Source: Alphaproteobacteria bacterium (GTDB lineage Bacteria; Pseudomonadota; Alphaproteobacteria; Rs-D84). From it: a stretch of DNA of 64,000 nt. Both the position numbers and the translations under genes were made by a program. Numbering within the stretch: position 1 is the first letter of the stretch; the number at the start of each line of letters is the position of its first letter. Location of the stretch: assembly GCA_033345235.1 (NCBI GenBank), contig JAWPOC010000014.1, forward strand, positions 73,085 through 137,084. Reading direction: 5' to 3'. The notes under the pieces are model-generated. The model ran no database searches and was not told the DNA's origin. It saw nothing but the letters and a program-made list of their open reading frames with translations. Positions 18,166-18,450 of this stretch are shown here, one piece after another.

Positions 18166-18450
18166 TTGCCTGATTTTTATAGTTTCGTTATAATGCAAAT
18201 GTCACTGGGGGCATCCAGTGATGGGGTGTCAAGACCCGTATAACAGCGTCTGAGCAAGAAATCAGTGCGCCGATTGGCGTATTTTTTACGCCCAGATGAA
18301 AAATAAACTCCTGACCGGTGAAAAAGGTCAGGAGGGCTGCGAATATATCGAATAAGCACACAATTCTGTTAATTGTCTTGAACCTCCTGACCACATTGAA
18401 TAACTAATGCGTGTGGTTTCTTTTTTAACACGAAAGAAAGGAATCAGGGG
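18166..18450 (+). promoter_or_regulatory. sigma70-type promoter plus conserved structured 5' leader (copy A) upstream of the small-secreted-protein gene
   Basis: The -35 TTGCCT (18166-18171), a 17-nt spacer and the -10 TATAAT (18189-18194) are present. The leader contains the hairpins CACTGG/CCAGTG and CTCCTGACC/GGTCAGGAG (18308-18334). A second CCTCCTGACC (18383-18392) runs into a terminator-like hairpin CCACA...TGTGG plus T-run (18391-18427). The region is about 90% identical to 40668-40951. Confidence 0.5.

Follow-up and report, generated by a model that had tools for sequence, protein, structure and literature searches.

The DNA analysed here, referred to as the window, is a stretch of 64,000 nucleotides from an alphaproteobacterium of the order Rs-D84 (assembly GCA_033345235.1, contig JAWPOC010000014.1, positions 73,085 to 137,084 of the forward strand), and all positions are counted from its first nucleotide. 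It carries a structured RNA leader upstream of two small-protein genes, as copy A (18160-18450) and copy B (40660-40951), and both regions read as the preliminary description of this DNA had reported, namely as near-identical leaders. The two copies are ~95% identical between the promoter and a point ~115 nt into the small coding sequence (CDS), beyond which they diverge, and two diagnostic 23-29-mers each occur exactly twice in the window (0 expected from shuffles). Textbook promoters had been claimed for both, and a consensus scan indeed called TTGCCT-17-TATAAT at 18166-18194 (-35 box, 17-nt spacer and -10 box, plus strand) for copy A and TTGCCA-17-TATAAT at 40668-40696 for copy B, located just past the terminators of the upstream housekeeping genes yidC and plsX, respectively. 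The transcript of copy A would start at about 18201, ~7 nt past the consensus -10 box. According to the list of open reading frames (ORFs), the genes that copy A would regulate (18451-21173, plus strand) encode a 68-aa signal-peptide protein (18451-18657) and an 834-aa repeat protein (18669-21173); the same gene pair also stands downstream of the leader in homologous loci, and neither protein gave a match in Pfam or NCBIfam. Both leaders folded more stably than dinucleotide shuffles (z = -4.7 and -5.7 for the two copies; 0/200 shuffles as good).

Copy A is read on the plus strand from the predicted 5′ end of the transcript, where P1 forms a 9-bp hairpin (GUCACUGGG/UCCAGUGAU, 18201-18222) in the minimum free energy (MFE) fold. 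The hairpins of the preliminary description are among the predicted folds of both copies, with the correction that P1 has 9 bp and not 6. P1 is followed by P2 (18223-18237), a conserved hairpin GGGG-UGUCAAGA-CCC with the family consensus GGGG-YGU-N4-A-CCC, by the 5′ strand of a pseudoknot (UAACAG, 18241-18246) and by a variable hairpin, P2b (GCGUCUG.../...CAGAUG, 18247-18298, MFE fold), at the tip of which lies a terminator-like element, T1 (GCGCC-GAUU-GGCGU plus U6, 18267-18287). Element A (CUCCUGACC, 18307-18315) is the putative anti-antiterminator strand and pairs with element B (GGUCAGGAGG, 18326-18335), which is the strand shared by the pairings with A and C and also a decoy Shine-Dalgarno (SD) sequence. 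Between B and C stand PL, a 3-bp stem UGC/GCA (18338-18358) with the 15-nt loop GAAUAUAUCGAAUAA (18341-18355), and P4, a hairpin ACAAUU/AAUUGU (18360-18376) whose loop CUGUUA (18366-18371) supplies the 3′ pseudoknot strand. Element C (CCUCCUGACC, 18383-18392) has three candidate partners: B, giving the antiterminator, the 3′ arm of the terminator via ACC, or the ribosome-binding site of the gene. The putative terminator T (18390-18426) consists of ACCACA...UGUGGU and then UUUCUUUUUU (18417-18426), and in P5 (18418-18453) the U-tract pairs with AAAGAAAGG, after which come the ribosome-binding region AAGGAAUCAGGGG and the ATG at 18451. In the MFE fold of copy A, the U-tract is paired with the A-tract, and CCUCCUG of C is paired with CAGGGG before the AUG.

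The whole leader of copy B (40668-40951, plus strand) was matched by the covariance model R1 with 87.1 bits (E = 7e-22). In addition to the promoter (40668-40696), it contains P1 (40703-40724), P2 (40725-40739), the 5′ strand of the pseudoknot (40743-40749), T1 (40766-40788), which was likewise called terminator-like, A (40807-40815), B (40825-40834), the PL loop (40840-40854), the 3′ strand of the pseudoknot (40865-40871), C (40883-40892) and T (40890-40927), followed by the ATG at 40952. The PL stem-loop, P4 with the pseudoknot, the embedded T1 and the pairing of C with the real SD are parts that the preliminary description had lacked.

The preliminary description had proposed a search for the element in related genomes. 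Homologues of the 68-aa protein were found only in metagenome-assembled genomes (MAGs) of uncultured Alphaproteobacteria, and all homologue loci carried the same leader in the upstream gap of ~280-350 nt. A conserved-core pattern search of GTDB species representatives, in which GGAGGG, the loop core GAAUA...GAAUA and CCUCC were obligatory parts of the seed, gave at least 115 stretches; the hosts among the matches listed were all gut or rumen Alphaproteobacteria MAGs (Ca. Enterousia, 'Rickettsiales bacterium', and the RUG and RGIG series). With R1, 119 matches were obtained in the 759 kb of pattern-found loci, ~19 of them additional to the seeded copies, and three in the window, namely copies A and B and, on the minus strand at 11212-11362, a divergent copy. 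Reverse-strand R1 matches in two loci (L068 and L105) were rejected as palindromic shadows of genuine plus-strand leaders. The leader thus belongs to a family of ~230-nt structured RNAs of the order Rs-D84 that mostly stand upstream of secreted-protein genes. Copies occur at a density of about one leader per 20-40 kb, and since the genomes of Ca. Enterousia and of the Rs-D84 order as a whole, which are uncultured inhabitants of the gut, measure ~0.75-1.0 Mb (PMC12306168), tens of copies per genome would be expected.

From 5′ to 3′, a family member consists of the -10 box, P1 (from about +1), P2, a 6-10-nt 5′ strand of the pseudoknot, the optional P2b, an A-rich linker, A, B, PL, P4 with the 3′ strand of the pseudoknot as its loop, C, T with its U-run, P5, the SD and the start codon. 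A reads CUCCUGACC or CUCCAACC, B reads GGUCAGGAGG or GGUUGGAGG, and C reads CCUCCUGACC or CCUCCAACC. PL is a 3-4-bp stem closing an invariant 15-nt loop, GAAUAUAUUGAAUAA, and T is ACC(A/G)C...G(U/C)GGU plus a U-run, with ACC common to T and C. A -10-like box was present at the matching distance from P1/P2 in 79 of 98 members, and P2 was found by its pattern in 99 of 117. The sequence of P1 differs among members, a hairpin of at least 6 bp being formed in 89 of 98, with a mean MFE of -7.6 kcal/mol versus -3.0 kcal/mol for shuffles. Two classes of leader were distinguished. The P2b insert with T1 occurs in most class-1 members, including the window copies, and is absent or short in class 2; because T1 lies inside P2b, class-1 leaders carry two terminator-like signals in tandem.

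Pairs were counted in 77 class-2 members, which MAFFT had aligned without regard to structure; the mixed-class alignment was not used for this purpose because a one-nt length difference in B and C was mis-registered in it. The structure of the terminator state had 91.5% of its cells paired and a covariation score of 0.276, compared with 0.152 for shuffles (0/500 as high) and ≤0.083 for slid partners, and that of the antiterminator state had 94.6% of its cells paired. The preliminary description held that the strand B can pair either upstream with A or downstream with C, and both pairings are in fact maintained, with 99.9% of cells paired for B:C and 96.2% for A:B. Double-sided changes were found in all four pairs of the PL stem (GC, UA, CG and AU types), in five of the six pairs of P4 and in three of T. 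The stem of T varied as ACCAC/GUGGU, ACCGC/GCGGU and ACCGU/ACGGU, with AU/GC at 118:139 and CG/UA at 119:138.

Among 117 non-redundant members, B:C formed a contiguous helix of 9.85 bp on average (range 9-13 bp), and the complementarity of B and C was always kept, through ~ten distinct B cores and 23 extended B/C pairs. The co-variants of B and C included GGUUGG/CCAACC, GGCUGG/CCAGCC, GGUCGGGG/CCCCGACC and GAUUGG/CCAAUC, as well as UCAGG/CCUGA, UUGG/CCAA, CUGG/CCAG and CAGG/CCUG; the compensatory sets of divergent members were GGUCGGGG/CCCCGACC, GAUUGGAG/CUCCAAUC and GCAGGAGG/CCUCCUGC. A:B averaged 8.2 bp and was shorter than B:C in 91 of the 117. RNAalifold, which had been recommended for a search for covariation, was run on 42 full-length members and independently gave P2, B:C (consensus pairing GGAGG:CCUCC), PL, P4 and T, and it counted GGGG/CCC versus GAGG/CCUC as covariation in P2. 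A pairing of the GGGG of P2 with the CUCC of A was considered and rejected, the GAGG variants of P2 being unmatched by changes in A. As judged from these alignments, seven helices and the pseudoknot covary, and every helix is supported by covariation.

The pseudoknot is formed by 6-10 bp between the loop of P4 and a segment just 3′ of P2, and its sequence differs in almost every member, complementarity of the two strands being kept in nearly all. Because MAFFT loses register in the P4 loops of variable length, it was tested per sequence, by comparison of own with mismatched partners. The longest complement was 6.5 nt on average for own partners and 4.2 nt for mismatched ones, and the duplex energies were -6.2 and -2.2 +/- 1.9 kcal/mol, respectively; in low-scoring members, mostly P2 or the loop had been mis-located by the search pattern. 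In the window, UAACAG/CUGUUA of copy A and CACUAAG/CUUAGUG of copy B are compensatory and are among the few sites at which the two copies differ. The pseudoknot is also kept in one copy on a viral contig and in the divergent third copy of the window (GGUUAUU/AAUAACC).

This third copy is a type II leader, located at 11200-11494 on the minus strand and identified from the R1 match (17.9 bits, E = 0.004) and by reading of the sequence. Its promoter, TTGACA/TACGAT (11494-11466), is followed by P1 (~11458-11437), P2 (11436-11419) and the pseudoknot strand GGUUAUU (11418-11412), which pairs with AAUAACC (11277-11271). A (CCCUGACU, 11347-11340), B (GGUCGGGGGG, 11333-11324) and C (CCCCCCGGCC, 11260-11251) are present, as are the putative terminator plus U-run (~11253-11221), and the ATG at 11202 opens the gene for a 319-aa secreted protein (10243-11202, minus strand). 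In type II leaders, a longer hairpin replaces PL, and the promoter, P1, P2, the pseudoknot, A/B/C and the terminator are kept; relatives of this type were found in two other loci (L043 and L126).

The preliminary description further proposed that the downstream pairing of B would take away the 5′ arm of the terminator, and this agrees with the family alignment, in which the 3′ end of C, ACC and at most ACCAC, is also part of the covarying stem of T. The antiterminator helix thus shares nucleotides with the 5′ arm of the terminator, and both pairings are evolutionarily maintained, as expected of an attenuator. The stem of T covaries and a U-run was present in 104 of 108 members, as in the sequence signature of an intrinsic terminator. 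For a transcript ending at C, the free-energy difference between B:C and A:B was -0.42 +/- 3.1 kcal/mol, and B:C was favoured in 61 of 117 members. A:B and B:C are nearly isoenergetic in this energy model, that is, a balanced bistable design is predicted.

Masking of an SD by an anti-SD-like strand had also been suggested. Masking of an SD is indeed predicted. The AGGAGG in B, to which that role had been assigned, is a decoy, and the predicted target of the anti-SD strand C is the real SD, ~50 nt downstream (18440-18450). When the region from C through the AUG was folded, pairing of C with the SD region was part of the MFE fold in 96/108 members, compared with 26/108 when the ribosome-binding region was shuffled, and in this fold T and P5 stand as two hairpins between C and the SD. 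The nucleotides flanking the SD follow the class of the leader: CAGG(A/G) occurred in 17/35 class-1 versus 9/69 class-2 members, and UGG(A/G)G in 1/35 versus 18/69 (Mann-Whitney p = 4e-6, a value that overstates the number of independent events because many members are paralogues). Since the flanks track the leader class, the real SD acts like another copy of B.

The leader always stands directly upstream of a gene on the same strand, with the start codon ~45-65 nt away. Of the downstream proteins, 85/116 have a signal-like hydrophobic N-terminal stretch, and 11/112 are XRE-type helix-turn-helix proteins, for which PDB and NCBIfam searches returned only generic similarity to antitoxins and phage repressors and no hint of RNA binding. 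Few downstream proteins are recognised by Pfam, among them a few OMP, ABC_membrane, DUF285/LRR_5 and Cys-rich ephrin-receptor-like ones.

From these results we propose, with a probability of about 0.7, that the leader acts in cis as a bistable attenuator and imposes a double lock, one on termination and one on the ribosome-binding site; an effector, which probably recognises the invariant loop together with the pseudoknot core, would flip the attenuator. The switch would rest on a chain of four strands: A (anti-SD-like), B (SD-like decoy), C (second anti-SD-like) and the real SD. In the OFF state, A would pair with B and leave C free, so that the 3′ ACC of C completes the terminator before the U-run and transcription stops; in transcripts that escape, CCUCC of C would pair with the real SD across T and P5 and block translation. 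In the ON state, B:C would close a three-way junction (B:C, PL and P4) linked by the pseudoknot to the P1/P2 domain; formation of the terminator would be prevented, and the SD would be free. By reading the invariant PL loop and the P2/pseudoknot core, the effector would stabilise the B:C junction and thereby turn the gene ON. One member (L094 4014-4172, minus strand) has a hairpin after C without a clear U-run and may be a translation-only version of the switch.

Several points weigh against this proposal. Termination at the hairpin and U-run T, like the transcript start, is predicted from sequence alone, and the T stems in the window are only 5-6 bp long with a 16-nt loop; because of this loop, they were not called by a simple terminator scan. 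The complementarity of C to the SD is partly trivial, since a CCUCC is complementary to whatever SD is present. Because GGAGGG, the loop core and CCUCC were built into the seed pattern, their invariance is in part a matter of ascertainment, and independent weight attaches only to divergent members and to positions that the pattern left free, namely the entire A, the 5′ half of B, the stems of PL, P4 and T, and the pseudoknot. The cell counts of the alignment are inflated in the same way as the p value above, paralogues being numerous. Type II members do without the invariant PL loop, which therefore is not essential to the switch as such. The direction of regulation, with the effector leading to ON, is a guess.

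The alternative that fares best is a metabolite or ion riboswitch, which we consider possible, if unlikely. P1/P2, the pseudoknot, PL and P4 would then form an aptamer closed by B:C, and the ligand would turn the gene ON. Indirect hallmarks of a riboswitch are present in the leader, that is, a conserved multi-stem pseudoknotted domain with stems covarying around invariant unpaired nucleotides and an expression platform that overlaps the closing helix, and the energetically balanced states and the failure to match any known class also fit. The downstream genes, however, encode secreted or surface proteins and XRE regulators and do not make up a pathway of metabolism or transport, a 15-nt tandem-repeat hairpin loop takes the place of a junction pocket as the conserved core, type II members exchange the PL hairpin and keep everything else, and no ligand can be proposed. 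Within the proposed attenuator, an effector that is a protein or another macromolecule is slightly more likely than a metabolite, in view of the 15-nt loop with its tandem GAAUA, the non-metabolic secretome regulon and the swapping of only this hairpin in type II.

An extension of the proposed attenuator to a lineage-wide RNA regulon is quite unlikely; in it, one effector would read the invariant loop shared by tens of leaders, terminated leaders would silence the ribosome-binding sites of their siblings in trans via the exposed anti-SD seed, and type II, with its exchanged PL hairpin, would serve as a second channel for a different effector. If true, most of the secretome would be so controlled in Rs-D84 symbionts with genomes of <1 Mb and few transcription factors, and paralogues of surface proteins could be expressed in a mutually exclusive or graded manner.

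It is very doubtful that the leader serves, in addition or as its main role, as a small-RNA gene, whose ~225-nt terminated transcript (or an ~85-nt P1-P2-T1 transcript) would act in trans with CCUCC as the seed to mask sibling SDs. In the OFF state, C would be single-stranded between P4 and the U-tailed terminator, which is the usual layout of a seed and an Hfq-type 3′ module, C is complementary to the ribosome-binding sites of members in a class-specific manner, P1-P2-T1 gave a weak isrK-like match, and tens of copies are expected per genome. The class-specific SD flanks are, however, explained equally well by pairing in cis, and among the copies examined the leader is always upstream of a gene on the same strand, at the fixed distance from the start codon given above. 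A search of both strands of the 64-kb window for a trans RNA antisense to the invariant loop gave no extra match.

The leader could instead be a non-regulatory cassette, a portable strong promoter with a stabilising or insulating 5′ untranslated region that was spread by duplication, gene conversion and phage transfer. The ~95% identity of the window copies into the CDS, which suggests gene conversion, the copies on three viral contigs and a tandem pair in one locus would suit such an element, which is nevertheless improbable given the compensatory changes in seven helices across many species-level genomes and the maintenance of three mutually exclusive pairings with balanced energies; moreover, a terminator between a promoter and its own gene is not expected of a passive element. 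Highly improbable is processive antitermination, in which P1 and P2 would act like the put RNA of phage HK022 and let the polymerase read through T1 and T: two adjacent hairpins from +1 are followed by one or two terminators and P2 is strongly conserved, but the likeness comes from the general two-hairpin layout, the A/B/C alternative pairings and the P4 pseudoknot go unexplained, and a constitutive antiterminator before its own terminator would be pointless without further input. Ribosome-mediated attenuation of the trp or ermC type, in which translation of a leader peptide across A would free B for C, has the four-segment logic (1:2 + 3:4 versus 2:3) on its side, together with a 19-codon ORF through A and B in copy A and a short ORF ending at UGA in A in copy B and some relatives, yet it is scarcely credible, because the 19-codon ORF is not conserved in copy B and the family, an ATG-initiated ORF reaches A in only 33/98 members and lacks an SD, the frame differs between the window copies, and the ATG lies in the P2b stem of the affected members. 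A mini-ORF or start codon in the invariant loop (AUU/UUG) was likewise rejected, since position 9 is C in 12/117 members, which destroys UUG, and positions 6-8 vary.

Several further observations concern the genes and copies around these leaders. The 834-aa protein (18669-21173) contains many copies of an F-x2-TF-x-GC-x2-L-x-G-x-IP-x2-LF repeat, and its leader-controlled relatives at other loci gave weak DUF285 and LRR_5 (BspA-type) matches. Copy B is followed by the gene for the same small protein and then by the large repeat-protein gene as an N-terminal remnant of ~33 codons (MLRKILFAFFGLFISLYKSNNPRK..., 41169-41270). Over the first ~115 nt of the small CDSs (18451-18565 versus 40952-41066), which encode the signal peptide plus VRYVDECVATKVS, the conservation of the DNA equals that of the leader and is followed by sharp divergence; this identity at the CDS start suggests gene conversion or an RNA-level constraint that extends into the CDS. 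On the minus strand of the window, a TrbI/VirB10 domain (PF03743, E = 2e-17) was identified in an 816-aa protein (22219-24669) whose N-terminal half is long and of low complexity, which may indicate a gene for type IV secretion or conjugation in the neighbourhood, and a 250-aa leucine-rich-repeat protein (43232-43984) has weak internalin-J-like similarity (NCBIfam, E = 6e-8, far under the cutoff) and no Pfam match.

Leaders also occur on three IMG/VR viral contigs (L142 at 11990-12215, L143 and L144). The leader of L142 precedes the gene for a 316-aa secreted protein, to whose family the product of the window gene 10243-11202 also belongs, and around this leader lie phage-like genes, including PLD-nuclease-like and DNA methyltransferase-like ones. 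Another locus (L104, 2769-3074, minus strand) has tandem leaders 174 nt apart, the second of which stands directly after a TATAAT box, without P1/P2 and with a degenerate A element.

A single RNA design before ~2-5% of genes would add a regulatory layer of major importance to these bacteria. The genes concerned mostly encode secreted, cysteine-rich or repeat proteins, together with small XRE regulators. For RNA biology, the leader is of interest as a large and well-supported orphan structured RNA with an unusual double lock, made of a decoy SD and two anti-SD copies, and with a modular variant, and it can be tested in vitro without culture of the host. In annotation, it can be used to mark the start of secretome operons in Rs-D84 MAGs.

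The preliminary description could not place the leader in any riboswitch class and proposed an Infernal search. With Rfam 15 at the gathering threshold, the whole window gave only two tRNAs, and eighteen further leader-carrying loci gave only tRNA and rRNA. The literature searched for RNA motifs in Enterousia or RF32 yielded nothing. As there was no match in Rfam and nothing in this literature, and as the defining features of the pyr/trp, ermC and T-box systems were not found, we regard the leader family as an uncatalogued, lineage-specific and multi-copy attenuator with a pseudoknotted, sensor-like domain; the attenuator logic itself is already known.

In a permissive scan of 18100-18500, the best match was isrK (RF01394; 20.3 bits, E = 0.028, 18202-18287), which was rejected against its threshold of 50. 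Like isrK and the HK022 put-like hairpin pairs, P1-P2-T1 of the window has a layout of two hairpins plus a terminator; the T1 part is absent from most members of the family, and the likeness to HK022 put is one of general layout, two hairpins at +1. The T-box (RF00230) gave no match in the same region even at E ≤ 10, nor, at the gathering score, in the window and the eighteen loci. Both T-box leaders and the present family are long (~200 nt) and multi-copy and have several stems, a pseudoknot and a 3′ choice between antiterminator and terminator. The T-box antiterminator, however, has a UGGN bulge, whereas B:C is a continuous perfect helix without a bulge, and T-boxes precede aminoacyl-tRNA synthetase and amino-acid genes, in contrast to the secreted-protein genes of this family.

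The pyr (PyrR) attenuator of Bacillus and the trp attenuator are built, like the leader, as a chain of three mutually exclusive helices that share strands, in which the upstream helix comes first, the antiterminator is longer and the helix in the middle takes away the 5′ arm of an intrinsic terminator. Neither a match to PyrR (RF00515) nor a PyrR-binding motif was found in the permissive scan of 18100-18500 and the eighteen loci. The leader differs from these attenuators in having no conserved leader peptide, in its position upstream of tens of unrelated genes per genome and in three added parts: a 5′ domain with a pseudoknot, a hairpin loop of invariant sequence and, as fourth member of the chain, the real SD. 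In the ermC and cat leaders, the four-segment logic is the one that A:B plus C:SD versus B:C reproduces, translation being turned on when segment 3 is freed from the SD. ermC is triggered by a ribosome that a drug has stalled on a leader peptide, and no such peptide is conserved in the leader family, which in addition has a terminator, so that its control would be dual. With dual-control riboswitch platforms, finally, the leader shares a sensor-like covarying domain, a closing helix that competes with a terminator and an SD sequestered in the alternative fold; it differs from them in its non-metabolic genes and in the use of a decoy SD and a duplicated anti-SD as the switching strands.

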